Under the pieces are notes generated by a model. That model worked only from the letters and a program-made list of their open reading frames with translations, was not told the DNA's origin and searched no databases. A program made the translations under genes and the position numbers. A DNA stretch of 64,000 nt from an uncultured Verrucomicrobiota bacterium (lineage in GTDB: Bacteria > Verrucomicrobiota > Verrucomicrobiia > Limisphaerales > UBA8199): NCBI GenBank assembly GCA_964631605.1, contig CAZVYG010000017.1, forward strand, positions 10,964 to 74,963, written 5' to 3'. This document shows, one piece after another, positions 3,514 to 43,303 of the stretch (position 1 is its first letter; each line of letters begins with the position of its first letter).

Positions 3514-5058
3514 TCACAAGTAATCGGGAGGCTTGGGTCCTATGCCAACGATACCCTTGATTATGTGCCGTAGGTACGGTGCGAGTCTCATTATCGCATA
3601 AAACGCCGTGGCCGCGGTTCCGGCAATGCCAGCGATCACGGTCCAAGTTCCCGGAAGCGTGATGCAAAAGATAGCGACTAGGGCCAAGCAACACGCGAGG
3701 AGCGCCGCAAGCCGCACGTTTGAACTGGCCCACGAGAATCCTGTAGTCCGACGGGCAGCGAAATAGAGCAAGGCGAGTTGTGCAATCTCAAAAAAAAGTG
3801 ACGCTATTCCGGCACCGACGAGACCGCAATACCGAATGGCCAAGGGCAGGAGCAGCGCGTGGAGACAGTTGGCCGCAAGGACGGAACGGGTGTAGGATGC
3901 CGCGTTAGCTTTGGCCAGGAGGAGGTAACCCAGCGGCCAGGAAATCATCTGAACAAAAACGCCAAGGAGGAGCCAGTAGACCAAAGGAACTGCCGCGAGA
4001 AACTCTGCGGAATAGAACGTTTTGATCACAAGGGGACAAGCGGCGAAGGTAAGCATGAGCCCCGGAGCCGCCATGAGCAGGGCGACTTCAGTTTGCTCAT
4101 TGACGAGGGTGTTGCAGGAATTGTTGTCCTCCGATCGCTCGCTGAGGGTAGGGAAGAAGTCCGCACCCATGGCCTGGGTCAGGAAGCCGACGTACAAGCC
4201 AGCCAGAGCAACCGCGGCAGTATAAAAGCCTGCAGCTTCAAGTCCCAGTTGGCGAACGACTAGAACCCTAGCTAGGTAAGCAATTGCGGAGACCGACAAA
4301 ACACTGGTCATGAACGCGCCCCCGCCTTTAAGAAGCGACTGTGCCTCCTTCCAAGTCTCTCGCCATGCAGGACCGCTGTCGGTCCCCAGTCTTGGTTCCC
4401 GGGCATACCACCAGGAGCTGGCCAAGCCCATCGCGGCAGTCACAACAATCGCCAAAACCACACCATCGCCTCCCAGCCACCAGACTAGCGCGACGCTCGT
4501 GGTCGTGCCAAGCAGCGCCCCAGAGAGACGGGCCTTGGCGAGGTCCGAAATTCTTCGCCTGCCTTGGATAAGGGCAGATTGCGCGCCGGAGAGTACCGCG
4601 AAAAGGACGGCAATGGATAATATTAGCGTTGCGGAAGACGGCCTCGAAAGAAAGCCTCGATGCCCGCTTTCTATGCTTTCTGGCTGGCGGCCAAAGCTTA
4701 GCGCACTAATAGGTTCGTGGAGGATCGCCAAGGCCAACAGCCCGCTGCAGCCAAGAATGAGCGAGACGCGACGCAACACCACGATTCGTCGCGCAACCGT
4801 CGTTGGGTCGCCTGTCCGTTGGGCGGCTGCGATTTCTCTGACCCCGCTGTTGCCGATGCCAAATGCCGACAAAGTGCTAAGAACATTCGCAACGGACTGA
4901 TAGAGCCCCATTGCGCCTACGCCTGGCGGGCCCAGCAGCAGCGCAAAAGCCTTCGTCTTTATTATGCCGAACACCAAGGTGCCGGCCGAAGCAGCAGCGA
5001 CGATCGCGGAAGACTTAAGAATTCTCTGGTGCGAGCTTTGGGGCACAGTTTCGGGCAT
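3514..5058 (-). CDS. wzx: O-antigen translocase/flippase (Wzx, MATE-like fold)
   Basis: ILKSSAIV...KTKAFALLLGPPGVG N-terminus and ~12-14 TM segments. ATG at 5058 preferred over the track start at 5097. Confidence 0.85.
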   Translation of the reverse strand: MPETVPQSSHQRILKSSAIVAAASAGTLVFGIIKTKAFALLLGPPGVGAMGLYQSVANVLSTLSAFGIGNSGVREIAAAQRTGDPTTVARRIVVLRRVSLILGCSGLLALAILHEPISALSFGRQPESIESGHRGFLSRPSSATLILSIAVLFAVLSGAQSALIQGRRRISDLAKARLSGALLGTTTSVALVWWLGGDGVVLAIVVTAAMGLASSWWYAREPRLGTDSGPAWRETWKEAQSLLKGGGAFMTSVLSVSAIAYLARVLVVRQLGLEAAGFYTAAVALAGLYVGFLTQAMGADFFPTLSERSEDNNSCNTLVNEQTEVALLMAAPGLMLTFAACPLVIKTFYSAEFLAAVPLVYWLLLGVFVQMISWPLGYLLLAKANAASYTRSVLAANCLHALLLPLAIRYCGLVGAGIASLFFEIAQLALLYFAARRTTGFSWASSNVRLAALLACCLALVAIFCITLPGTWTVIAGIAGTAATAFYAIMRLAPYLRHIIKGIVGIGPKPPDYL

Positions 5059-5184
5059 CCGTAGGGAACTGTTTTGTTTCAGACGGCCGCCGACCAAAAC
5101 GCGCCGCGGGCGAGGCGGTAGCCGAGGGGTGAGGCTCGGAGCCGGGTCCAGGCAGTTTGGAGGGTGAGGGGGAGGGGGGGCAAA

Positions 5185-5354
5185 GGCTGAGGGATGAAAC
5201 TTGAAACCGGAAAGTTGAAAGAGTGGACTATCGGACTATCGGACTATCCGACCATGGGGCCGACGGACGGATGAGGGATGAGGCGAAGGATGAGGGATGA
5301 AACTTGAAACTTGAAAGGGCCGAGTAAACCACGGAATACGCGGGAGACACGGAA
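5185..5354. repeat. Composite short-tandem-repeat spacer 1: TGAAAC(T) heptamers, GGACTATC octamers (5225-5256), GGATGAG heptamers and a CACGGAATA-type 9-mer block
   Basis: Read directly. 5185-5248 matches 5960-6023 with 1 mismatch in 64 bp. Confidence 0.95.
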
Positions 5355-5366
5355 GAGACCTGGGCG

Positions 5367-5669
5367 TCAGGCCACTCGATCTTTTGTTTTGAGCCAGTAT
5401 TCCGGACGGCGGCGGCCATGGGCGATCGCAAGAACCCAGATTGCATCAGCCCAAAGGACGTAGGCGACCTAGTACGGAAAGACTTTGAGGTTCACACGCC
5501 GATAGCCGGTTGGCCGGAGGCGCGGAATGTCGGGATGGCGCGCGATCCATTGGATGGTCTCCCGGGCCATTTCCTTGAGGCGGAAGCCCAGGCCGGGCTC
5601 GAGTTGTTCGTAATAAATGATGGCCTCGACGAGTTCCTGCTCCGCCTCCTCGAGAATTTCAATCCTCAT
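5367..5669 (-). pseudogene. RelE/ParE-family toxin with in-frame premature TAG at codon 67 (5469-5471)
   Basis: MRIEILEEAEQEL...VFPY* continues in frame as VAYVLWADAIWVLAIAHGRRRPEYWLKTKDRVA* (TGA at 5367-5369). The full frame is 101 codons and includes the typical AHxRRxPxYW C-terminus. Confidence 0.85.
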
Positions 5670-5902
5670 TGGGTGAACCGGCGGTCAAGATCGGCGAACA
5701 CGTCTTCGAAACTTCGCGAACGGGCGGTTCCGGCCTGCACAGCTCTCAGTCGCCGACAAAGTTCGGATTCCCACTCGGCCTGCGCCTCCGGGTCAACCGG
5801 CGCGTCGGCTTCGGCCAGATCAATGAGGATGCGGGCCAGGGTCAGGCGCTGGGGCGCGGGCAATTCCAAGGCGTCTTTGGTGACCTCTGCAAGCGCTTTC
5901 AT
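5666..5902 (-). CDS. Addiction-module antitoxin component (TIGR02574-like)
   Basis: LELPAPQRLTLA and EWESELCRRLRAVQAG patterns; overlaps the ParE start by 4 nt. ATG 5902 preferred because ATG 5914 falls within the predicted -10 box. Confidence 0.85.
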   Translation of the reverse strand: MKALAEVTKDALELPAPQRLTLARILIDLAEADAPVDPEAQAEWESELCRRLRAVQAGTARSRSFEDVFADLDRRFTQ

Positions 5903-5912
5903 AACTGGCGGC

Positions 5913-5941
5913 ATTATCTACGGCCCCGCGGTGCCTGGCAA
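5913..5941 (-). promoter_or_regulatory. Sigma70-like promoter TTGCCA-N17-GATAAT for the antitoxin/ParE cassette
   Basis: Minus strand reads TTGCCA ggcaccgcggggccgta GATAAT; spacer counted as 17 nt. Confidence 0.6.
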
Positions 5942-5959
5942 GTCAGGGGACGGAGGCAA

Positions 5960-6208
5960 GGCTGAGGGCTGAAACTTGAAACCGGAAAGTTGAAAGAGTG
6001 GACTATCGGACTATCGGACTATCGGACTATCCGACTATCGGACTATAGGACCATCCGACGATGGGACTGACGGAGGGCTGAAACTTGAAACTTGAAACTT
6101 GAAACTTGAAATCTGAAATCTGAAAGGCCCGAGTGAACCACGGAATACGCGGAAGACACGGAAACACTGAAACACTGAAGCACTGGAGCACTGAAGCACT
6201 GGAGCACC
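5960..6208. repeat. Composite spacer 2: GGACTATC-type octamers x8-9 (6000-6071), (C/T)TGAAA(C/T) heptamers x7 (6078-6126), 9-mer block (6136-6165) and G(A/G)A(A/G)CACT octamers x6 (6161-6208)
   Basis: Read directly from sequence. Confidence 0.95.
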
Positions 6209-6233
6209 GGATTACAGACGCACCGGCGCCCGA

Positions 6234-6495
6234 TTATGGGGCGGCCCAGCCTTGTTGGGAACGAACTTTGTCGCCGAATTCGACACACCAGGCAGGCAGC
6301 TCGCCGGCGAGGCGCCCCGCCACCGTTACCAGCTCGCGGAGGCGGTCCGGCCGCAAGGTCAGATCGTAGGCGTGGCGCATCACGTGGCGGAAGCCTTTAA
6401 GTTCGCGAAGGTCGCTGACCCGGTCGGCGGGAATGAAGGCCGGCCGAATGCCAGGTAAATTCGGTGAGGAGGATGGTCAGGCCGGCAGGGTCCAC
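6234..6495 (-). pseudogene. HEPN (HepT-like) RNase toxin remnant with an internal deletion and frameshift
   Basis: GTG at 6495 gives (M)DPAGLTILLTE. A different frame then reads LPGIRPAFIPADRVSDLRELKGFRHVMRHAYDLTLRPDRL...GWAAP*, containing the R-X4-H motif RHVMRH. Total 262 nt is not a multiple of 3 and is much shorter than a full HEPN gene. Confidence 0.75.
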
Positions 6496-6824
6496 GGTTC
6501 TCCTTCGCGCAGAATTTTGTCACGAAAACGGCATTCGGCCAACAACAGTATGTCCACCCGGCGCCCGAGGCGCTCGGCCAGCAGGCTGGTCAACTGGTAA
6601 AGGCTCGGGGTGGCGGGCTCGGCGGCCAAGGCCAGGTCAACGTCGGAGGTCTCGTCGAACTTCCGCGGCGTGGCGAGGGATCCGAAGACGATGACGGTCT
6701 GGCCCGGAAGCAGTTGGCAAAGGGCTTCCCACAATTGCCGGCGCACCTCGGCGCGCAGGTCTTCCCGGCGCTGAAGCCGCTCTTGTTCCATCTGCTGCAG
6801 CAAGGTCACAGGCTTTGGTTCCAA
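6477..6824 (-). CDS. Minimal nucleotidyltransferase (MNT) antitoxin
   Basis: Motifs VIVFGSLA, SDVDLAL and RRVDILLL. Track start is TTG and may lie upstream of the true start. Confidence 0.9.
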   Translation of the reverse strand: MEPKPVTLLQQMEQERLQRREDLRAEVRRQLWEALCQLLPGQTVIVFGSLATPRKFDETSDVDLALAAEPATPSLYQLTSLLAERLGRRVDILLLAECRFRDKILREGEPWTLPA

Positions 6825-6827
6825 ATT

Positions 6828-6856
6828 ATTATTCCCGACAAGCGGAGGATTGGCAA
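6828..6856 (-). promoter_or_regulatory. Sigma70-like promoter TTGCCA-N17-AATAAT for the MNT-HEPN cassette
   Basis: Minus strand reads TTGCCA atcctccgcttgtcggg AATAAT. Confidence 0.5.
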
Positions 6857-6865
6857 GGGGAGGAG

Positions 6866-7086
6866 GGACTATGGGGCTGTGGGACTATAGGACCATAGGA
6901 CTATCCGACTATCGGACCACCCGACCATGGGAGCGACGGACGGATGAGGGATGAAACTGGAAACCGGAAAGCAGCAAGGTGTGAAGGTGCGAAAGTCCAC
7001 AGGTGCGAAAGTGTAAAGGTGTGAAAGTCCAAAAGTGCGAAAGTGGGTTCCGTGGTTAGCGATTCGGTATTCGGTGCATTCCGTGA
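6866..7086. repeat. Composite spacer 3: GGACTAT(C/A/G)-type octamers x8 (6866-6929), heptamers, (C/T)GAA(A/G)GT(G/C) octamers x9 (6974-7045) and reverse-oriented 9-mer block
   Basis: Read directly. 6923-6988 matches 7740-7805 with 2 mismatches in 66 bp. Confidence 0.95.
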
Positions 7087-7128
7087 TCGGGAAAAAGTTG
7101 AAACGCTGCAGCCCGCCGTTGCCCGCGG

Positions 7129-7419
7129 TTACTTGAGTCGCTGCCGTGTCCAGGCGGGGTCGCGACGGCAGTCCAGGACGGCACTGACGGAGACGAGGTC
7201 GCCTTCCACGGTGTAATAGATGGCATAGGGGAACCGGCGGGAGAGGAGCCGGAACCGCCCAAAGACTTTCCGGTGAACCCCGGCATACAATTGGAGCGAG
7301 TCAATGTCCGAAAAGAGCGAGTCGAGGAAGTAAGCGCCCAGGCCCTGTCGCTGGTTTTCGTAAAACGCGAAGCCCGCGGCCAGGTCTTCCTTCGCCGAGG
7401 GCAGAATCCGAATGGTCAT
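7129..7419 (-). CDS. RelE/ParE-family toxin (intact)
   Basis: MTIRILPSAKEDL...GLGAYFL...RFPYAIYY...VLDCRRDPAW pattern; 96 aa. Confidence 0.9.
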   Translation of the reverse strand: MTIRILPSAKEDLAAGFAFYENQRQGLGAYFLDSLFSDIDSLQLYAGVHRKVFGRFRLLSRRFPYAIYYTVEGDLVSVSAVLDCRRDPAWTRQRLK

Positions 7420-7634
7420 GGAAAGCGGTTGCGCAACTCTCGCTTGGCGGCTTCCCAGTCCTCATATTGCTCCTGGCCGGAGCGCACGCGCTGCTCGCGT
7501 TGGTCGAGAACTTGCGCGTGCCAAGGGGGGGACTCGAATTGCTCGGCGTTTCGGCTGAGGTCGGCCCACAGGGCTTCCATCGCCCGGAGTTTCTCCTCCA
7601 AGCTCATCCGCTCAATCTCCAACTCAACGGCCAT
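7416..7634 (-). CDS. Addiction-module antitoxin component
   Basis: MSLEEKLRAMEALWADL...SPPWHAQVLDQRE pattern; ATGA-type overlap with the toxin. Confidence 0.9.
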   Translation of the reverse strand: MAVELEIERMSLEEKLRAMEALWADLSRNAEQFESPPWHAQVLDQREQRVRSGQEQYEDWEAAKRELRNRFP

Positions 7635-7640
7635 ATTCAA

Positions 7641-7649
7641 AGCCTAGCA
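7641..7649 (-). promoter_or_regulatory. Extended -10 element (TGC-TAGGCT) positioned for a leaderless transcript starting at ATG 7634
   Basis: Minus strand reads TGCTAGGCT ttgaat ATG. Confidence 0.4.
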
Positions 7650-7706
7650 CACCGCCCCCCCGGAACAAAGGGCAAAGACCAGGGAAGGGAACATAATAAG
7701 GCCGTC

Positions 7707-7899
7707 CAACTATCCGACCATGGGACTATCCGACTATCGGACCATGGGACCGACGGACGGATGAGGGATGAAACTTGAAACCGGAAAGCAGCAAGGTGTG
7801 AAGGTCGCCAGGTCCGAAGGTGCGAAAGTCCAAAAGTTTTTCTGTGTATTCCGTGTATTCCGTGGTTAAGGAATCGCTGAAACACCGAAACACTGAAAC
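7707..7899. repeat. Composite spacer 4: octamers x5 (7707-7746), heptamers, GAAGGT-type octamers, reverse 9-mer block (7842-7867) and GAAACAC octamers
   Basis: Read directly from sequence. Confidence 0.95.
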
Positions 7900-8684
7900 T
7901 ACAGTCCGTAATGCACGCCAACGAGCCGGGGGAGGGAGCCGCCCAAGGTGGCGCGGTGAACGCTGAAGCCGGGACTATCATGCCACCCGATTTGGTCGGC
8001 GTCGCGGACGAAGGCGACACCGGGTTCGACGCCGGCGGCGGCAGCCTTCTGAATCTCGCGCAGGGCGGTGTCCGCCAGAGCGAGCCAGCGGGTTTTGAGG
8101 TCCACCGGGTCGAACGCGGCGCCCATCTCGCGAAGTTCGGCCGGGTTGACGCGGGAGTTGCGTTGCATTTGGTTGAGGAGGAGAAAGGGATTGAAGCCCG
8201 GGTCTTTGGCGCACGCCGCCCAGATGACCGCGTAAAGGGGATAGGTTTCCGCGTTGGCCACAAGGTCCACGAGGTCGCGGGTCTCGGCCCGTCCGCCCAT
8301 GGCAAGGGCTTTGTTGGTAAGCGCATCGAACCGGTGCAGCCGCCAGCCGAGCAAGTCGTCAGGCTGGATCGGAAAGAAGCGCCAGGCGGCGTCCTGACAC
8401 CATTCGAGCTTGACACCGTCGGCGCCGCGCGAAACCCAGGCGCGGCGAATGGCCGGCGTCCAGAGTTCCGGACGGACGGCATAGCCGTGTTGCTGCAGGG
8501 TTTGCAGGTCTTTCTCACTGGACTGGATGACGGCCTGCTCGGCGTCGTGGAAAACGTCCACATCGGCGCTCCAGCGAACGGCTTCGCGGGCATTCAGAGA
8601 AATCCCGCCCGCCACGTAGCTTTCGGGCGAACGGTTTGCGGCCAGGAGGCGGAGCAGCTCGGATTGAAACGGGGTTAAAGGCAC
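7899..8684 (-). CDS. AbiEii/AbiGii-like nucleotidyltransferase (type IV TA toxin-like)
   Basis: GTG start at 8684 gives (M)PLTPFQSELLRLLAANRSPESYVAGGISL...RWSADVDVFHD (GG...DxD Pol-beta signature) and later KALAMGGRAETRDLVDL (K...R...RDxxD). Confidence 0.75.
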   Translation of the reverse strand: MPLTPFQSELLRLLAANRSPESYVAGGISLNAREAVRWSADVDVFHDAEQAVIQSSEKDLQTLQQHGYAVRPELWTPAIRRAWVSRGADGVKLEWCQDAAWRFFPIQPDDLLGWRLHRFDALTNKALAMGGRAETRDLVDLVANAETYPLYAVIWAACAKDPGFNPFLLLNQMQRNSRVNPAELREMGAAFDPVDLKTRWLALADTALREIQKAAAAGVEPGVAFVRDADQIGWHDSPGFSVHRATLGGSLPRLVGVHYGL

Positions 8685-8887
8685 GCTTCGATTTCGCGCG
8701 CGGTTTGCCAGGCGGCCGGGCCGCCGTTCTCGCGCAGACGGCGGACGACCAGTTCGACGTCGGCCCGGTCGGCAAGCGGGAGGGCGGGCTGACGGGTCCA
8801 GAAGCATTCCGGATGCCTGACCAGGGCGGCTTGCGCCCGGCGCAGAGCCTCGGCCGAGACGGACAATGCGGTCTTCTGGACGCTCAT
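8675..8887 (-). CDS. 70-aa hypothetical protein, probable cognate partner of the AbiEii-like NTase
   Basis: MSVQKTAL...HPECFWTR...LRENGGPAAWQTAREIEACL; overlaps the NTase start by 10 nt. The track's extension to 9151 runs through repeats. Confidence 0.65.
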   Translation of the reverse strand: MSVQKTALSVSAEALRRAQAALVRHPECFWTRQPALPLADRADVELVVRRLRENGGPAAWQTAREIEACL

Positions 8888-8940
8888 ACGTTCGCTGAGT
8901 TCAGGGTCGCACGAAGACACTTCGAGGGCAAGGGGCGGAG

Positions 8941-9047
8941 GCAAGGCTGAAGGCTGAGGGCTGAAACTTGAAACTTGAAACTTGAAAGACCGGACTATCG
9001 GACCATCCGACCATCCGACTATAGGACTGTTCGACCATGGGACTGTC
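8941..9047. repeat. Composite spacer 5: AGGCTG(A) units, (C/T)TGAAAC heptamers x4 (8961-8988) and GGACTATC-type octamers x7 (8992-9047)
   Basis: Read directly from sequence. Confidence 0.95.
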
Positions 9048-9078
9048 GCGAGGGTGATTTCGAGCCTGAAGGACTGGT

Positions 9079-9453
9079 CTAGGCTGGGAGTAAAGGCCGG
9101 GGCCTGCCGCGGCGGCCAAACACCGGAAGGCCGATGTCGCGGACCATCCAAGGGGGGACTTCCTCGGGGATGGGGTCGCGGCAGCCCAGTTGCTCGCGGA
9201 ATCGGCGCAGCATGGTCGGGAGCCGATAGAGGCGGGCGGCGGCCTGGTACAGGGCCAGCCGCCGCAGGGCGCGCCCGGAAGCAGCAGGGGCCTCGGGCAA
9301 TCGCTGGTGCAGGGTGAGCGCCCAGTCAACAGCCTGACGCAGGGCGTCCAAGTCAGTCACCGCGCCTTTTTCCCATTCGTTCCACGCGGCGTTGAGGCGG
9401 GCCGGATGGAAGGCCAGTTCGTAGGCGGTTTGGAGTTGGGCGCGCGCGGTCAT
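9079..9453 (-). CDS. Hypothetical helical protein translationally coupled to the DUF6036-like NTase
   Basis: ATGA overlap with the upstream NTase stop; protein-like composition; no family recognised. Confidence 0.6.
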   Translation of the reverse strand: MTARAQLQTAYELAFHPARLNAAWNEWEKGAVTDLDALRQAVDWALTLHQRLPEAPAASGRALRRLALYQAAARLYRLPTMLRRFREQLGCRDPIPEEVPPWMVRDIGLPVFGRRGRPRPLLPA

Positions 9454-10013
9454 GACAGCCAGCGTTTAAGGTCGCGTTGCAGATTTTCAAGGTTTTCGCG
9501 AACCAGGGCATCATTTCGGAAAGGGGCAGGCAGCCTGTCAACGGCCCGGACGATGTCTTCGAAGCGGAGGCGGCCATGAATGACCAGGAACTGAATGTCC
9601 GCCTGGTCGGTCGGGTCGTAGCGGATCAGGCGGCTGGCTACAAGGTCCGCCGGCGACAGGGTAAATACGCGCAGACGACTGCCCTGCCACAACGGCACGC
9701 TGTTTTCAGGGGAGGGAGCGGCCAAGCAGAGACGGTCGGGACCGATCCATTCGATGTGGTCGGACGGAAAATCTTCAGCAGGGTTGACGGGCAGGCCAGC
9801 CTGCTCGGCTGCGGCAACCAAGGCGCGCTGGTTGGCGACGCTATAGGGTCCGGCGACGTCCACATCAAGGCTAAACCGGTCTTCTTCACCCATGAGCATG
9901 ACAGCGGCCGACCCGTAAACGCAGAGGCTGGCGGGTTCATTCAGTGCTGCATCGAGGCGGTCCAGATGTTCGCGAAGTGTTTTGGCGTTCATGAACGTGA
10001 TCCGCTGATTCAA
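9450..10013 (-). CDS. DUF6036-like nucleotidyltransferase
   Basis: LCVYGSAAV...SLDVDV (GS...DxD) and DLVASRL...DQADI motifs. True start possibly ATG 9992. Confidence 0.7.
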   Translation of the reverse strand: MNQRITFMNAKTLREHLDRLDAALNEPASLCVYGSAAVMLMGEEDRFSLDVDVAGPYSVANQRALVAAAEQAGLPVNPAEDFPSDHIEWIGPDRLCLAAPSPENSVPLWQGSRLRVFTLSPADLVASRLIRYDPTDQADIQFLVIHGRLRFEDIVRAVDRLPAPFRNDALVRENLENLQRDLKRWLS

Positions 10014-10115
10014 CTTTTTGAGGGCAAGCTGCCGCCCTTGGTTGTTTGCGGGGTTTCCCGCAAAAACCTGCTTCGACTGACTCGATTGTCGTGCCGGAAC
10101 ATCCGGCGTTTTGTC

Positions 10116-10219
10116 CGACGATCCGACTATCCGACTATCCGACCATCGGACTATCCGACTATAGGACCATCCGACTATCGGACCATCCGACCATCAGACT
10201 ATCGGACGATGCGACTATC
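10116..10219 (+). repeat. Tandem array of 13 (G/C)GAC(T/C)ATC-type octamers; the last unit overlaps the four-helix-bundle stop codon
   Basis: Read directly from sequence. Confidence 0.95.
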
Positions 10220-10589
10220 CGTCTGCGGCGGCCTCTCGCTCCACAGCGCGAATCAATCCCTGCAAGCATGCCAAGGTCCGTCGGGCCTGGTCCTGGAGCG
10301 GCTCAACTTCCGCACGCTTGAAATACCCCAGCCGGGTGGCAAAGTGCAGAAAATAATGGGCTTCGTTCAGCGAACCACGGGCAACGTACAGGAAATGCAA
10401 GTAGTCCTTCTGCCTCGAGCGTGAGGCTCCTTCGACAATGTTGGCCGGCACTGAGTATGCCGCGCGTCGGATTTGCGATGTGAGGCCATAAACTTCCTCT
10501 TTGGGAAAGGCGGCGGTGGCCGAGTAGATCGCAACCGCCAGGTCGTCAGCCAGTTTCCATGCTTCAATTTTCGTGTAGTCCCGCAGCAT
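10215..10589 (-). CDS. Four-helix-bundle protein (23S rRNA intervening-sequence protein / TIGR02436 family)
   Basis: DYTKIEAWKLAD...FPKEEVYGLTSQIRRAAYSVPANIVEG...LHFLYVARGSLNE is the family signature. Confidence 0.95.
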   Translation of the reverse strand: MLRDYTKIEAWKLADDLAVAIYSATAAFPKEEVYGLTSQIRRAAYSVPANIVEGASRSRQKDYLHFLYVARGSLNEAHYFLHFATRLGYFKRAEVEPLQDQARRTLACLQGLIRAVEREAAADG

Positions 10590-10669
10590 GAGGTCCTTCT
10601 CAAACTTAACTAATTCGCCGGCACCGAATTCCGGCTGCCGGATTCACCAGCAGTCCGGTTTTCAGAATT

Positions 10670-10717
10670 CCCAGTCCGATAGTCCCATAGTCCGGTAGTC
10701 CCATAGTCCGATAGTCC
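10670..10717 (-). repeat. Reverse-oriented octamer array: (G/C)ATAGTCC x5 plus one partial unit
   Basis: Reverse complement of the GGACTAT(C/G) arrays at 5225, 6000, 6866, 7707, 8992 and 10116. Confidence 0.95.
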
Positions 10718-10754
10718 CATAACACTGCTCCTCGGTCTCTGGTCCATGGCCTTG

Positions 10755-11258
10755 TCATCCCCGCCTTTTCCATCCGCCCAGAAGATTGGTAACGAATGGG
10801 ATGACGCGGCGGCTCTGCCTGCCCCAACTGTGGAGCATGGTGACTCGGGCCTGGACTCGGCCGCGCTCGTCAGGCGGCATTTCCCGTACCAAATCGGCAA
10901 TGCGGTCCATGCGGTCCAGGCCGGCATCCAGCCGCGGCAGGACTTGGTCGCGCAGGAAGCGGGTCGCGAGGTTGCGCAGTTCGGCGACGGCTTCGTAGTG
11001 GACGCGGCGGTCGCCGGCGACATAGACGGCGCGGATGGCGCCGGCGTTGCGGAGGAACTTGAGTCCCTGGCTGGCGCTGCCTTTGCTGAGGCGCAGGCGC
11101 TCAATAAGGTGGTCCATGGCCAGCGGTTGGGCGGAGATGAACAGCAGGCCGTAGATTTCGGCGTAGGAGCGGGGCTGACCCAGCAGGCGGCCCAGCTCAA
11201 CGAAGAGATGGATCACCTCGGTCTCGAGGGGGGAGAGAGCTGGGGCGGCGGGGGACAT
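10755..11258 (-). CDS. GbsR/MarR-family winged-helix transcriptional regulator
   Basis: LGQPRSYAEIYGLLFIS...LSKGSASQGLKFL...GDRRVHYEA pattern. Confidence 0.9.
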   Translation of the reverse strand: MSPAAPALSPLETEVIHLFVELGRLLGQPRSYAEIYGLLFISAQPLAMDHLIERLRLSKGSASQGLKFLRNAGAIRAVYVAGDRRVHYEAVAELRNLATRFLRDQVLPRLDAGLDRMDRIADLVREMPPDERGRVQARVTMLHSWGRQSRRVIPFVTNLLGGWKRRG

Positions 11259-11338
11259 GGGCGGCTGTGGGGTGGCGGATTACGGGGCGGTGCGTTCAGA
11301 GTTTGGGATTGTGCGGGAGTTCGGATTTGGCATTTGAA

Positions 11339-11394
11339 ATTTCAAATGTGAGATTTCAGATTTCAAATTTCAGGTTTCAGGTTTCAGCTTTCAG
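11339..11394 (-). repeat. Reverse-oriented heptamer array (A/G)TTTCA(G/A) x7-8
   Basis: Reverse complement of the (C/T)TGAAA(C/T) arrays at 5195, 5297, 5970, 6078 and 8961. Confidence 0.95.
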
Positions 11395-11460
11395 ATTTTG
11401 TTGGGGCCGGGGGGCATCCGGCGCGTGATCATTATTGACATGGTTTCATCGTATGCAGGT

Positions 11461-11501
11461 CTTATACCAAGCTGGTTCGAAACGTTCAAGTACAAATGAA
11501 C
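11461..11501 (-). promoter_or_regulatory. Promoter TTGAAC-N17-TATAAG with overlapping palindrome GTTCA-N8-TGAAC (candidate autoregulatory operator)
   Basis: -35 at 11484-11489 and -10 at 11461-11466 on the minus strand; palindrome spans 11484-11501. Confidence 0.5.
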
Positions 11502-11725
11502 AAAATGAACGCGGGGCCTGTGGGGACACGACCGCACAGCCCGACTACGGAACACCAAAACATCAAATGACCGAAATACCGGCCCGAGGTTCAAAGGCCG
11601 CTCTTTGGCCCAAATTGAATTCCCGCCGCGTCCGGAGGAACGGCCGAACCGGGGCCTTGGGTTTCCAGCGGCCCGGCGAGGAGGGCGGATTCAACCCGGG
11701 CCTGGCCCGAGGGAACCGGGCCGGG

Positions 11726-27805: not shown

Positions 27806-29245
27806 ATGAAATTTCAATTCATTGCGGGAATCGCCCTTGCGGCAGCGGGCCTGGGCGCCGCGGCCGCATCGCTGCCTTCAAAGCCGGACCTGGTCATTTT
27901 CCTAACCGACGACCAGAGCCAATCAGACCTCAGCCCATACGGGGCGAAGGAATTGCGAACGCCGAACATGCAGCGGCTGGCGGATCAAGGCATGAGGTTT
28001 ACCCGCGCTTACGTCGCCTCCCCAACCTGCGCCCCGAGCCGGGCGGCGCTGCTCACGGGCCTGATGCCCGCCCGCAACGGAGCTGAACCCAACCACAGCA
28101 AGCCGCGCCCCGAAATCAAGAAATGGCCGGCTTATTTCCAGGACCTGGGTTACGAGGTGGTCGCTTTCGGCAAGGTTTCCCATTACCGTCACACGGCGGA
28201 CTACGGGTTCGATTACTTCGCTCACGACACTTTCCATGACCACGCCGCCATTCCCGCCGCGGTTGAATTCCTGAGGAACCGCCCGCGCCAGGGCGCCAAA
28301 CCGCTTTGCCTTTTTGTCGGGAGCAACTGGCCGCACGTTCCGTGGCCTGAGGATACTCCCGGCTACGATCCCAACCGGCTTCCGCTGCCCGCCGGGTCAG
28401 TGGACACGCCCGCAACCCGCGCCTGGCGTGCCCGTTACGCGGCCGCGGTCACCAAAGCGGACGAGGACCTCGGGTTGGTATATGAGGCGGCAGGGGCGGC
28501 GCTTGGTCCGCATACGCTCTACCTCTTTTCCGGGGATAACGGCGCTCAGTGGCCGTTTGGCAAGTGGAATTGTTACGAAGCCGGGGTTTGCGTCCCCTTG
28601 ATCGTCGTCTGGCCCGGCATCGTCAAGGCCGCCTCGACCACGGACGCCATGGTCAGTTGGGTGGATTTTCTGCCCACGCTGCTCGAGGTGGCAGGCGGGA
28701 AACCTCCGGATGGCCTGGACGGCCGCTCCTTTCTGCCCGTCCTTCTTGGCAAACGCCGCGAGCATCGCGACCGCATTTTTACCACTCACAGCGGCGACGG
28801 GCGTTGGAACATCTATCCCTCGCGGGCAGTTCGCGACGGAAACTGGAAGTATATTCGGAACCTCCACCCGGAATATGCGTTTACGACTCACATAGATCTG
28901 CCGGGGAACCTGGGCCAGCGCGCCTACTTCGCCTCGTGGGAGGCTGCCGCCCGAACCAACAGCCAGGCCGCTGCCATTCTCAATCAGTATCATGCCCGTC
29001 CGGCCGAGGAATTGTACAACCTGAAGTCAGACCTCTGCGAACAACGCAATCTGGCGGCGGACCCGAAGCAGGCGTCCCGCCTCAAACGCCTGCGCAATCA
29101 AGTTGACACATGGATGCGTGACCAGGGCGATCCAGGCCGGACTTATGCCGAACCGCGACTCCTGAGCGACCCCGCCAGTTACGGGCCAAATGCACCGCCG
29201 GGAGACGCCGCGGCGACGGCGCGCCCGCAAAACAAGACTCGATGA
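27806..29245 (+). CDS. Sulfatase (N-sulfoglucosamine sulfohydrolase-like)
   Basis: FLTDD, CAPSR, GKVSH, SNWPHVPW, GDNG and RPAEELY motifs. Confidence 0.9.
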   Translation: MKFQFIAGIALAAAGLGAAAASLPSKPDLVIFLTDDQSQSDLSPYGAKELRTPNMQRLADQGMRFTRAYVASPTCAPSRAALLTGLMPARNGAEPNHSKPRPEIKKWPAYFQDLGYEVVAFGKVSHYRHTADYGFDYFAHDTFHDHAAIPAAVEFLRNRPRQGAKPLCLFVGSNWPHVPWPEDTPGYDPNRLPLPAGSVDTPATRAWRARYAAAVTKADEDLGLVYEAAGAALGPHTLYLFSGDNGAQWPFGKWNCYEAGVCVPLIVVWPGIVKAASTTDAMVSWVDFLPTLLEVAGGKPPDGLDGRSFLPVLLGKRREHRDRIFTTHSGDGRWNIYPSRAVRDGNWKYIRNLHPEYAFTTHIDLPGNLGQRAYFASWEAAARTNSQAAAILNQYHARPAEELYNLKSDLCEQRNLAADPKQASRLKRLRNQVDTWMRDQGDPGRTYAEPRLLSDPASYGPNAPPGDAAATARPQNKTR

Positions 29246-40160: not shown

Positions 40161-42470
40161 TTAGGGATTCTTTGTAATGCGGTAAATCCTTCCTGTGTTG
40201 CGTTCCGCCAAGTAAAGGGCGTTATCTGGGCCGAACTGGAGGCACGTGACCTGCTGGAAGCCACTGCCCATAATGGTTGCTGATCCGTTGGCATCCACCC
40301 GGATCAACTGGTTCGAGCTGTTCACCGCGTAGATGTCCGATCCCCAGAATCGGTCGCCCGGCCCGCGTGCCAAGGGTGAGGATTCCTTTGTCGGAGCGAA
40401 ATAGCGGGTGAGCGGAGTGCCATCGGGGGCGAACAGCGACGCCCAGTTCGAATAGCGCGCGGTTGCCACAATCCGATTAAGCGAATCCACAGCAATCGGC
40501 CCGGCCCAAGCCAAATCGAAGAGCTTCGTCACTGATGTCCCGAGGAAAACAAAGACTGCCTCTTTCCCTTCGTCGGAAATCAGCAAGCGCCGCGGTGTTG
40601 AGTCGTCCAGAACCATGAAGTTGGGATTGCTCAAACTCGTGCTGGGGCCTAAAAGGGCATTGGTCGAGCCATCTGGTTTGAGGACCCAGACCGCTCCGCC
40701 CTTAAGATAGTAATCCAGCACAACCAAGACCGATCCGGGGCTGCCTGAATAGACCCCGTCTTGATCCACCCAGACCCCATCCGGGTCAGAGATAGGATCG
40801 CCGAATTCCGCTGCGGGCGTGCCGCACTGGCCAACTTTCCAGATTTTCATCTCGAGCGAGGGAGTCTGGAAACCGAGGGTGTCGCGCCCAACATAAAGCA
40901 CTCCATTCGTTGCGAAGGCCAGTCCGTAGGCGTTGGGCAGGAGCGCGTAAAGCTTGGTGACGGCACCGGAAACCTGCGGACAAGTGTCTTGGCCGTCTGT
41001 AAGACGATAGAACTTCGCTTCGCCTTGGATCGGAATCGTTGCGCAGTAGTTGTTCCCGATCGGCGCGACGCCGACTGAGGAGTACGACCATGCGGGCGGG
41101 TCGAGTCGGTCGGTTTCCTGCAAGACAAAGCCGGTGCAGGTCTGCTCCCAGCAGAGGGTGACGTTGGTTTCGGCCAGCGCGAGGCGCAGCGTCGGTCGCG
41201 GCGGGCCACCGACGGTGACCGTAAAGGTGCAGGCGTTGGAGTTACCCGAACTGTCCACCGCCCAGCATGTGACGGTACTGTGGCCGGGACAAAAACGGGT
41301 GCCGGCGGCCGGCTGGAAGGTCACCGTAGGGCTGGGATCGCAATTGTCGCGGACCTCCGGGCTGGGGAACGAGACGGCCGTGCCTCCACACCCGTCGAAT
41401 TCCGCCGCGACGTTTGACGGACAGGTGATTACCGGGGGGGTGGTATCCACCACTGTCACCGCCTGGCTGCAATTCGTGCTATTACTACAGCAATCGGTGG
41501 CCTGCCACGTCCGCGTGATGACCGCTGGACAGGTACCGTTGGTAATCGTGCTGAGCACACTGATAGTTACGTTGGTTCCGCAGAAGAAGTCCAAGGCGGT
41601 CGGCTCATCGAAGCTCCAACTGCTGCCGCATTCCACGGTCTTGTTGATGGCGCAGGTGATTGCCGGCGGCATGGTGTCCACCACGGTCACCGTCTGGCTG
41701 CAAGTATTGGTCGCGCCCTGACAGTCGGTGGCCTGCCAGGTGCGCGTGGCGGTCATCTGACAACCGGCGGTGTTGGTCACGGTGCTCAGGACCGACAATG
41801 AGGTATTCGTGCCGCAACAGAAACTGTGCAGGACAGGGGAATCGAAGTCCCACGGCGCGTTCGAATCAACGGCCTTGTCGGAAGCGCAGGTCAGACTCAA
41901 CCCGTGGCCAACAGGAATGATAATGATGGAGGATTCCCCGATGGCATTGGTTGGCTCGCTGGGATGCCAGGCACCTCCGGCAAAGAAATTCGTTACCCAA
42001 GCGTTGCCGACCCACTTCAGCCACTGTGCACCCTCCAAGGGTGGCGCGCCCATGATGTTTTCGAATGTCCCCACGCCCATATCTTGTCGGCTCACGAAGT
42101 TCACCGCCCCGCAACCACAGGGCAACGCCAGCGGCAACGCGACTGACGGGGACGCACCACTGAAAATCAACTGGGCGGCGCCTGACAGCTGGATCAATGC
42201 TCCTTCGCCTGGTCTGAGGGTGCCCCCGGTTGGAGTCCAGGCGAGTTCCATGTCATCGAAGGCATATAGTATCCATCCGGAACAGGTCCACTTCCAGAGT
42301 CGCGTCAGTGGGGGCACGTTTGGCAGGACCTCATCCAAGGTGTTGTTGCCGTTATCCAAGTGATTTGCAATGGCGCTAAAGCCCGCAGGCAGAGCATTGG
42401 TGTACGAATCGGCCAGACTGCTCACTGCCAGCGCGCACAAGCAGACGGGGAGCAGAAGACATGTTTTCAT
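40161..42470 (-). CDS. Secreted HYR-domain protein with repeated Cys-containing Ig-like units and a C-terminal beta-propeller
   Basis: Signal peptide MKTCLLLPVCLCALAVSSLA; repeated TRTWQATDC...VTVVDT units; HYR (DTTPPVITCP...TVTCWAVDSSGNSNACTFTVTV); NHL-like FGPDNALYLAE. Confidence 0.8.
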   Translation of the reverse strand: MKTCLLLPVCLCALAVSSLADSYTNALPAGFSAIANHLDNGNNTLDEVLPNVPPLTRLWKWTCSGWILYAFDDMELAWTPTGGTLRPGEGALIQLSGAAQLIFSGASPSVALPLALPCGCGAVNFVSRQDMGVGTFENIMGAPPLEGAQWLKWVGNAWVTNFFAGGAWHPSEPTNAIGESSIIIIPVGHGLSLTCASDKAVDSNAPWDFDSPVLHSFCCGTNTSLSVLSTVTNTAGCQMTATRTWQATDCQGATNTCSQTVTVVDTMPPAITCAINKTVECGSSWSFDEPTALDFFCGTNVTISVLSTITNGTCPAVITRTWQATDCCSNSTNCSQAVTVVDTTPPVITCPSNVAAEFDGCGGTAVSFPSPEVRDNCDPSPTVTFQPAAGTRFCPGHSTVTCWAVDSSGNSNACTFTVTVGGPPRPTLRLALAETNVTLCWEQTCTGFVLQETDRLDPPAWSYSSVGVAPIGNNYCATIPIQGEAKFYRLTDGQDTCPQVSGAVTKLYALLPNAYGLAFATNGVLYVGRDTLGFQTPSLEMKIWKVGQCGTPAAEFGDPISDPDGVWVDQDGVYSGSPGSVLVVLDYYLKGGAVWVLKPDGSTNALLGPSTSLSNPNFMVLDDSTPRRLLISDEGKEAVFVFLGTSVTKLFDLAWAGPIAVDSLNRIVATARYSNWASLFAPDGTPLTRYFAPTKESSPLARGPGDRFWGSDIYAVNSSNQLIRVDANGSATIMGSGFQQVTCLQFGPDNALYLAERNTGRIYRITKNP

Positions 42471-42756
42471 CGGTTTTGTTTCCTTTCTATGGCGCGGTTT
42501 GTTTGGGGAGTGTTCGGTAGGGGGCGGCAAACTGGTAAACTGGTAAGAAATTGGTTTTTTGGCGCTGGATGTACTAAGCGCTCCGCGGGTAAGGGAGAAT
42601 TGGTTTTGCGGCTCACCAATCATAGTCCCATGCTACCACCCGGCGGTCCGGCCTGTCAAGGGGATTTTCTTGGCGCTACACAGCGGCTTGGGAGCGGGGC
42701 TGCTGGCCAGGGCGGCGGGTGGCGGCAGGGCAAAGGGGAGACGAGGAGAAGAGTTG

Positions 42757-42864
42757 GAAGGTGAGAAGGTGGGAAGGCGAAACGGGACCTTTCGACCATG
42801 GGACTATCGGACTATGGGACTAAAGTGAGGGGCGAAGGGGCGAAGGTGGGAAGGTGCGAGAGCA
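42757..42864. repeat. Isolated copy of the octamer repeat families (GAAGGTG-type and GGACTAT-type)
   Basis: cgaccatg-ggactatc-ggactatg-ggactaaa at 42793-42824, flanked by gaaggtg units. Confidence 0.85.
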
Positions 42865-43303
42865 CGGGGCGTTTTGGCAAGCTGGTGTGCGGCAGACTGG
42901 GGCGGATGTCGAACTCTGGACCGAATGGGGCGGTCGGGCCGCGGATGGGGAGGTCACCGTCAGTGTCCATATCGCCACAAGTCCGAGGGACCCGCGCGTC
43001 ACCGAAGACACCCATTCGATCGCCGTCACCTTACTGACTGAAGGGTTTGGCAACGATCTTGGAATCCACTTCGATGCTTTGGCCGCGGAGGCCATCGAGA
43101 ATGCCGCAACCTCGAATCAGCTTGCCTGTTAAATCCTGCGTTCAGGCGTCATTTTCGAGCACGCCGACCAATACCTCTACTTCAACCAGCACGCGCTCTT
43201 GGTTCAGACTCAGGAACCGATAGCTGTGCCTGCGAACGGCGCTCGCAAAAGGCTTTCATTTTGTTCTCGAATTTTTGCCGGCTTTATGGCGTCATTCCCC
43301 CCT

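Follow-up and report, generated by a model that had tools for sequence, protein, structure and literature searches.

Why should a small gene, set in a string of co-oriented genes, be enclosed by two short tandem arrays that are reverse complements of each other? The question is raised by a locus in a 64,000-nucleotide stretch of contig CAZVYG010000017.1 from an uncultured Verrucomicrobiota bacterium (hereafter the window), in which inverted octamer arrays bracket a gene for a four-helix-bundle (4HB) protein of the family PF05635, whose open reading frames (ORFs) also lie in the intervening sequences (IVSs) of 23S rRNA in Coxiella and Leptospira. To our knowledge, no function has been assigned to IVS elements and their S23p/4HB ORFs, which date back to 1993, nor an origin to intergenic heptamer arrays, namely the short tandemly repeated repetitive (STRR) sequences and their relatives, which were described from about 1990 onward. 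Matched inverted arrays were found around homologues across phyla, mostly in operons and not in rRNA, and this bracket rule connects both puzzles. We consider it somewhat probable that the window element is an IVS-type, promoter-less hairpin cassette that resides in an mRNA leader and not in rRNA.

The bracketed gene and its predicted stem

The 4HB protein was matched by Pfam PF05635 at 114.5 bits (cut-off 33.8) and by NCBIfam TIGR02436 at 111.8 bits (cut-off 24), and both profiles place it within the family. The Protein Data Bank entry 2GSC (Xanthomonas XCC0516, five chains in the entry) matched its residues 3-122 with E = 2e-24, and 1892 homologues were found at E ≤ 1e-5. The initial annotation had described inverted octamer arrays around the gene, with the last unit over the stop codon, and this description was correct in all details that can be read from the letters. 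On the plus strand, the core of the upstream array (10678-10717) reads GATAGTCC CATAGTCC GGTAGTCC CATAGTCC GATAGTCC, with degenerate units on both sides, and the downstream array consists of 13 SGACYATC units (10116-10219), only one of which is an exact GGACTATC. The 3' arm starts, in the sense reading, with a unit that includes the stop codon TAG (10217-10215). As in STRR-type arrays, the units are intergenic, arranged head to tail, and variable in copy number among relatives, though with a period of 8 instead of 7.

The complementarity between the arms is 75-81% over 43-53 nt. RNAfold analysis of the minus strand of 10100-10730 gave a minimum free energy (MFE) of -263.8 kcal/mol (z = -4.9 versus shuffles) and closed 45 long-range pairs (19 GC, 20 AU, and 6 GU) around the ORF, pairing 10722-10674 with 10207-10159 in helix runs of 13, 6, 6, 3, 5, and 12 at a mean pair probability of 0.95. 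The long-range stem with the gene in its loop, which had been proposed from inspection, was thus recovered by folding, and the predicted 45-bp stem encloses the ORF by terminal inverted repeats in the manner of an IVS. The duplex of the arms alone reached -74.9 kcal/mol, and only the proximal ~6 units of the 3' arm (10159-10207) were used in pairing with the 5' arm.

The spacer that separates the 5' arm from the ATG contains a local hairpin at ~10625-10665. Because this hairpin is conserved in one close relative (L086) but absent from six others (L001-L006), it is probably dispensable. A purine-rich, Shine-Dalgarno (SD)-like GAGAAGGA lies 5-12 nt ahead of the ATG of the 4HB gene.

Conservation and exchange of the bracket in relatives

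The window by itself is insufficient to show the meaning of the inverted pair, which is shown by orthologous loci and by a survey of the family. The octamer GGACTATC was counted 15 times in the window versus 0.64 expected. Arrays of the GGACTATC type at 5225, 6000, 6866, 7705, and 8991 share one polarity with the downstream arm, and the array at 10673-10721 is the sole array of this unit in the window with inverted polarity. Since one inverted array among seven may be due to chance, relatives were compared.

The upstream neighbor of the 4HB gene is a co-oriented MarR-like gene, whose stop codon lies 33 nt ahead of the 5' arm, and the MarR-4HB synteny was found in L001-L006 and L086-L088. The closest relatives were Verrucomicrobiota metagenome-assembled genomes (subdivision 3, Pedosphaerales-like, and Udaeobacter-like). 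The closest 4HB homologue was 90% identical and was located on contigs that retain the MarR-4HB pair, among which the genes following the pair vary (PIN, DUF6932, and ParE cassettes). These contigs carry sense-polarity GGACTATC-type arrays upstream of the 4HB gene and GATAGTCS arrays from the stop codon on. The rest of their upstream spacer is unlike that of the window, yet the inverted arrays are retained, and the upstream arrays of L001-L006 and L086 are of the same type and polarity as in the window. The number of 3' arm units was 13.5 in the window, 8 in L086, whose MarR is 99% identical, and 8-13 in L001-L006.

The comparison was extended to 80 metagenome loci with MarR orthologues that were 55-99% identical. 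In approximately 14 of these 80 loci, a 4HB gene was found downstream of MarR, and the genes belonged to different subfamilies, their products being 33-100% identical to the window protein. They sit before or after the motif of a conserved leader that follows the window cassette (Table 1), each with its own matched arms, such as GGAAGAT/ATCTTCC, GGGGAGC/GCTCCCC, GGACCAC/GTGGTCC, and others. Most MarR loci with sufficient sequence had no 4HB gene, and many of the empty sites carry a solo array in 3'-arm polarity directly after the MarR stop codon; these solo arrays may be relics or landing sites. In L087, the MarR is 95.5% identical and the 4HB protein is 64% identical, and the arms are ATAGACC (x~16) and GGTCTAT, followed by the old GATAGTCS array. 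This locus represents a cassette swap with breakpoints within the arrays. In L101 and L138, the 4HB copies are truncated or frameshifted, and the arms are still present. No target-site duplications were found at the boundaries inspected by eye. The expectation of the initial annotation that the gene and its arms form a self-contained unit was borne out by these loci, in which the unit has been gained, lost, and replaced beside orthologous MarR genes.

Inverted arrays without an ORF, placed back to back, were observed in L101 (~610-700), L119 (~990-1090), and L121 (~1215-1290). These hairpins occupy MarR-to-operon leaders that hold full cassettes elsewhere.

For the family survey, 79 loci with homologues were picked by peptide motifs only, from Verrucomicrobiota, Omnitrophota, Nitrospirota, Planctomycetota, Chloroflexota, Acidobacteriota, Bacteroidota, Proteobacteria, Elusimicrobiota, the candidate phyla radiation, and others. 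For each gene, the two 200-nt flanks were compared without gaps; the best inverted repeat gave the score, and a direct repeat was the control. The results of this preset test confirmed the predicted excess of inverted repeats around homologues: a score of at least 15 was reached by 46 of 81 PF05635 genes compared with 4 of 417 control ORFs (Fisher p = 7e-38; Mann-Whitney p = 4e-32). The median inverted-repeat score was 17 for PF05635 genes and 8 for control ORFs, the median direct-repeat score was 8 in both groups, and a direct-repeat score of at least 15 occurred in only 7 PF05635 genes. The four control exceptions were two PF05635 genes missed by the filter, one PF13366 gene, and one arm-sharing neighbor. 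In MFE folds, the median number of flank-to-flank pairs was 48 for PF05635 genes versus 14 for controls, and at least 40 such pairs were formed in 58 of 79 PF05635 genes versus 8 of 87 size-matched controls, 5 of these 8 exceptions again being PF05635 or PF13366 genes. An earlier comparison, in which duplex folding of 160-nt flanks was set against mononucleotide shuffles, gave mostly negative z-scores; it had inflated energies and a poor control and was replaced.

Tandem Repeats Finder (TRF) detected arrays on both sides in 56 of 80 genes, and the consensus units were reverse-complementary in 40 of these 56. The arm units mostly have a period of 7 and are of more than 30 different kinds, for example, GACCACGA, GGCAATG, AGTGGGT, GGCTTGT, GCAGTGG, AGTGGTC, and GGGGTTAG. 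Even paralogues within one locus (L018 and L015) differ in their arms, and in each of them the two arms match one another. At the level of sequence, such lineage-specific matched units constitute covariation of whole repeat units. A CsrA-sponge role, suggested by a GGA in each unit, was rejected since GGA is absent from most lineage-specific units.

On the sense strand, the 5' arm was purine-rich in 36 of 42 cases, and G exceeded C in 34 of 43. The upstream neighbor was co-oriented in 66 of 75 cases at a median gap of 78 nt, and the downstream neighbor in 53 of 75 at a median gap of 68 nt, and these gaps are mostly filled by the arms. In many homologues, the 5' array, which has GGAG-like units, stops 0-10 nt short of the start codon. 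Complete plasmids of cultured cyanobacteria (Nostoc punctiforme, Calothrix NIES-22, and Picosynechococcus PCC 7003) carry the bracket as well: pNPUN02 of N. punctiforme PCC 73102 has, around NPUN_RS35280, GGAGTCA x4-5 ahead of the ATG and TGACTCC-type units past the stop codon, and the arms of NIES22_67910 in Calothrix NIES-22 are GGGTGTA and TACACCC. On plasmid NZ_CP016476.1 of Picosynechococcus sp. PCC 7003, a 4HB cassette (L169; 126543-126899; AWQ21_RS15215) separates cas10/cmr2 from cmr3 in a type III-B operon, and the arms form the 36-nt gaps on each side. Where the arms fill short gaps to co-oriented neighbors, as they do in many homologues including L169, both arms must be part of the operon mRNA. 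In an earlier survey, 18 genes of the 4HB family were reported in cas loci, one of them between cmr3 and cmr2, and repeats were not mentioned (PMC3936711).

The same kind of bracket was observed around genes of another family, PF13366 (PDDEXK_3; TIGR04256, GxxExxY), which encode ~115-135 aa and have inverted short-repeat arms like those of 4HB genes (Table 1). Judged by these arms, PF13366 genes are a second cargo of the same kind of cassette. Since they bear the same bracket, the arms are a feature of the vehicle rather than of any single protein, and the suggestion in the initial annotation that the 4HB protein binds the (GGACUAUC)n duplex is weakened accordingly.

Most Verrucomicrobial homologues (P0003-P0120, 144-152 aa) have a hydrophobic C-terminal tail of ~25 aa (…SLLVLGL..WSGGQLSVVS), which is absent from the window protein. 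The end of the tail resembles a translated heptamer array (e.g., CAGTTGT repeats), and the ORF of L089 enters its 3' arm (~1930-2010). The tail may be an array by-product and not a functional domain, and the arms may thus account for the odd C-terminal tails of annotated homologues.

A proposed hairpin cassette in mRNA and its rivals

What kind of element would such a unit be? The 23S rRNA IVSs of Coxiella and Leptospira, which are regarded as selfish, horizontally acquired elements, resemble it in having a PF05635 ORF in the loop and terminal inverted repeats that enclose the ORF almost exactly. In contrast to these IVSs, the window copy lies in an mRNA leader between protein genes and not in an rRNA gene, its unit is 8 nt long, and its arms are longer and differ from each other in size (6 vs 13.5 units). 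No rRNA match was found within 4900-11600 at E ≤ 1 and the neighbors are protein genes, indicating that the element is not an insertion in rRNA; none of the homologues at 18 tested loci was located in an rRNA gene. In Coxiella burnetii, the S23p (PF05635) ORF lies in the loop of a 28-bp terminal stem, whose 5' arm contains GACAGAT x3-4 directly before the start codon, in strain-variable number; the RNase III cut has been placed within this stem, where the first repeat begins, and the SD region, also part of the stem, is lost on cleavage, the protein being undetected in vivo (PMC4990558). The family link of the gene to rRNA IVSs and to Avd, drawn at the outset, holds, and tandem heptamers are present even in the 5' arm of the Coxiella IVS.

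The heptamer arrays of other bacteria (cyanobacterial STRR, Xanthomonas GGGAATC, Nostoc GGGGAYT, and Beggiatoaceae TAACTGA) are similar to the arms in that they are tandem 7-8-nt units in transcribed intergenic DNA, with unit numbers that differ between relatives, and the Nostoc and Calothrix cassettes bear such arms. The classical STRR units and their cyanobacterial host do not fit the window. In Xanthomonas, 70-75 convergent (inverted) array pairs have been described (PMC4692102), and Beggiatoaceae arrays stop just short of start codons (PMC4679880); both papers treat the arrays alone and make no mention of S23, four-helix, or intervening sequences. Our full-text literature search found papers on IVSs, on heptamer arrays in Xanthomonas/Nostoc and Beggiatoaceae, and on members of the 4HB family in cas loci and near diversity-generating retroelements, but no account of the bracket at non-rRNA copies, nor of a link between the arrays and the 4HB family; journals outside this search may contain one. 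The ORF-bearing IVS is known; new are its general form, the mRNA habitat, and short-tandem-repeat arms with covariation.

Avd of diversity-generating retroelements has a homologous four-helix bundle, which is pentameric in Avd, and its homology to the 4HB family has been noted (PMC10053308). The Avd profiles scored far below their cut-offs with the window protein (PF22296, 17.1 bits vs 40; NF033474, 27.3 bits vs 80), a Pfam scan of ORFs in the surrounding gene island returned no reverse transcriptase, and no template/variable repeat pair was seen there, though none was specifically searched for. The window gene thus does not qualify as the Avd component of such a retroelement, and we know of no Avd genes that are bracketed by inverted arrays. 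Integron cassettes (attC), repetitive extragenic palindromic (REP) sequences and bacterial interspersed mosaic elements (BIMEs), and the hairpins of miniature inverted-repeat transposable elements share with the cassette foldable ends, strain-variable presence, and ORF-less derivatives, and they include small promoter-less units that line up head to tail in a common orientation and are transcribed from a promoter farther upstream. Unlike attC or REP, the cassette ends are lineage-specific short tandem arrays that pair across the gene. No integrase was found among the island ORFs scanned, a search that covered the island, not the whole window, and used no attC model.

The anatomy of the unit, the matched bracket across the family, the co-oriented tight packing, and the polymorphism of presence, absence, and replacement were all observed, and on them we base a model of the cassette in mRNA. 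The unit would consist of a purine-rich short tandem array, a PF05635 ORF, and a complementary array that starts at the stop codon, and it would lie in a co-directional gene string from the MarR-like gene to the ops-like leader of a polysaccharide operon, where it would be transcribed by read-through from upstream. Once the 3' arm was transcribed, the arrays could pair in any of several registers, forming an imperfect duplex of ~45 bp with the ORF in a loop of ~470 nt. By analogy with rRNA IVSs, RNase III would cut this duplex and separate the cassette RNA from the host transcript, so that translation would be limited to the time before stem closure. The arms and the ORF would be acquired, lost, and exchanged together, and slippage in the arrays would quickly alter the unit number.

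Several results weigh against this model. The arms are unequal in the window, and the 84 nt between the 5' arm and the ATG make an internal promoter possible; a promoter and terminator scan of 9900-11500, weak for this phylum, detected a single terminator-like site, which is on the wrong strand, and no site of the sigma-70 type. The cassette encodes no mobility enzyme. Arm mismatches comprised 42 G·U, 67 A·C, and 122 others and thus lacked the wobble bias that selection on a sense-strand RNA helix should leave, in a test of low power given that the arms are 92% Watson-Crick paired and their registers ambiguous; the lack of a G·U excess means that the matched arms might be maintained at the DNA level. 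The breakpoints of L087 inside the arrays likewise point to DNA-level recombination.

Much of this evidence would fit arrays that act in DNA, as terminal inverted repeats or hairpin ends for recombination, replication slippage, or transposition, with the RNA stem as a by-product. We regard this explanation as rather unlikely, even though it would agree with the missing wobble signature, the array-internal breakpoints of the swap, the different unit numbers in 99%-identical strains, the polymorphic occupancy (including the solo arrays retained after the stop codon at many empty MarR loci), and the second cargo, since PF13366 is a PD-(D/E)XK nuclease and this fold is typical of DNA-cutting enzymes. 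Neither a transposase nor a recombinase, however, is encoded by the 4HB cassettes, the boundaries checked by eye showed no target-site duplications, and the arms differ between paralogues of the same genome, which makes a single trans-acting protein that recognizes the ends unlikely. The purine bias (36/42) and the upstream co-orientation (66/75) are transcript-linked asymmetries, which would not be expected of arrays that act in DNA alone, and the homologous rRNA stem demonstrably works in RNA. Overall, the purine bias, co-orientation, and tight packing favor a role at the transcript level, the array-internal swap and the nuclease cargo favor one at the DNA level, and the two are compatible.

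It is less likely still that the stem is retained to control expression of the gene or of the host operon without cleavage or mobility, either by hiding the ribosome-binding site to a degree tuned by repeat number or by REP/BIME-like protection from 3' exonucleases. In many homologues, pairing of the GGAG-like 5' array next to the start codon would bury the SD sequence, and cleavage in Coxiella takes away the SD region, the protein being undetected; the ORF-less inverted-array hairpins in the same leaders and the strain-variable repeat number would also suit such control. In the window, by contrast, the distance from arm to ATG is 84 nt, and the stem does not include the SD-like GAGAAGGA. As a duplex of 45 bp, the stem would be a canonical substrate of RNase III, and its escape from cleavage would need a reason. 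Expression control also leaves unexplained the cassette swap and the repeated independent arrival of different subfamilies at one leader. Mere coincidence, in which one array of an array-littered accessory island came to be inverted beside the gene by chance, is very improbable. The window offers seven arrays of the same unit in 5.2-10.7 kb, one of them inverted, along with many other 7-8-nt arrays, and similar clutter is present in L001 and L002, but the inverted pair is retained in all orthologous loci and the bracket surrounds homologues in many clutter-free phyla, compared with at most 1% of real control genes.

If the hairpin-cassette reading of the window element is generalized, PF05635 and PF13366 genes with inverted arrays would form a widespread, unrecognized class of mobile hairpin cassettes, with the rRNA IVS as their best-known habitat and solo arrays and ORF-less hairpins as their decay products. 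We put this forward tentatively, as a possibility that we would not yet call probable. If true, such cassettes colonize long, processively transcribed units, namely rRNA, cas operons, and polysaccharide operons with ops-like leaders, and their decay accounts for some intergenic heptamer repeats (STRR and those of Xanthomonas, Beggiatoaceae, and Verrucomicrobiota), including the island spacers of the window. The arms would account for the presence of 4HB genes in cas operons, and the bracket would serve as a simple signature to detect cassettes and relics. These ideas can be tested in cultured strains for which genetics and RNA-seq are already established (Nostoc punctiforme, Nostoc PCC 7120, and Picosynechococcus PCC 7003), and L169 is a possible system for the effect of a cassette on Cmr expression.

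The downstream leader and the repeat-rich island

The features of the locus are collected in Table 1.

Table 1. Coordinates of the cassette, its neighbors, and the bracketed PF13366 genes (window numbering unless a locus is named)
Feature	Position	Strand	Basis or remark
MarR/GbsR-like regulator gene	10755-11258	minus	Pfam MarR_2 23.9 bits, under the cut-off of 27; synteny
5' arm, ~6 GGACUAUS units (sense reading)	10673-10721	minus	TRF, 6.1 copies, period 8
5' untranslated spacer, arm to ATG	10590-10672	minus	Sequence and fold
4HB gene, PF05635 / TIGR02436, 124 aa	10215-10589	minus	Profile matches; cargo within the predicted loop
3' arm, 13.5 GAURGUCS units (sense reading)	10114-10221	minus	TRF
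Conserved non-coding leader after the cassette	10014-10113	minus	Conserved in L001-L006; context, outside the cassette
PF13366 gene with bracket	L066 6805-7203
PF13366 gene with bracket	L029 2914-3300
PF13366 gene with bracket	L021 783-1184
PF13366 gene with bracket	L138 82-495		Less clear

The leader contains a hairpin GCCGGAUGUUCCGGC at ~10093-10107, a hairpin GCGGGAAACCCCGC at 10048-10061, and an ops-like element GGGCGGCAGCUUG at 10025-10037. It is conserved in L001-L006 irrespective of the next gene, and it was found downstream of MarR in 55 of 69 metagenome loci. Across L086-L165, it has the form of a covarying hairpin (GCCGRAAAnnCGGC-type) followed by AAACGACCAAGGGCGG[C/T]AGCTTG (10025-10070 of the minus strand in the window). 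No Rfam family matched the leader. The version GGCGGTAGCTTG, present in L097 and L103, fits the Escherichia coli ops/JUMPStart consensus GGCGGTAGnnTG. The genes after the leader are those of polysaccharide synthesis (flippase, wecB-like, carbamoyltransferase, Ugd-like, and Wzm-like), and the leader is probably an antitermination leader for a NusG paralogue (RfaH-like). An imperfect second ops-like core, GGGCGGCAGCCTC, was observed at 28940-28952 on the minus strand.

The cassette belongs to an island (~5100-11430) of small genes, all co-oriented on the minus strand, which include ParE/antitoxin pairs, a nucleotidyltransferase, a DUF6036 nucleotidyltransferase with a partner lacking a Pfam match, the 4HB gene, and the MarR-like gene. 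Between the ops-like leader and a flippase gene (3514-5097), five two-gene cassettes were observed on the minus strand at 5100-10013. The members covered by the Pfam scan, which left out 6230-6460, were two ParE/Unstab_antitox pairs, a Pol-beta nucleotidyltransferase, and a DUF6036 nucleotidyltransferase, and the ORFs at 7899-8807 and 9079-9453 had no Pfam match. The spacers between the cassette pairs are composite 7-8-nt arrays (TGAAACT, GGACTATC, GGATGAG, AAGGTGCG, GAAGCACT, and TTCCGTGTA), and other cassettes occupy the equivalent place in L001 and L002. An Rfam scan of the island gave a single sub-threshold Proteo-phage-1 match over a repeat array (27 bits vs 42), which was judged to be low-complexity noise.

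Upstream of the MarR-like gene, an ATTTCAG/ATTTCAA array (x9.6) was observed at 11332-11398. The TGAAACT arrays at 5195, 5298, 5970, 6078, and 8962 are reverse-complementary to it; an outer stem formed with these arrays was considered and rejected, since the polarity upstream of MarR is opposite in L001 and L002. A second purine-rich array cluster was observed at 42746-42859, containing GAGAAGAGTGGGAAGGT, GGACTATC x2.8, and AGGGGCGA x4, and it is flanked by a large secreted-protein gene (40161-42623, minus strand) and a 92-aa ORF without a Pfam match (42854-43132).

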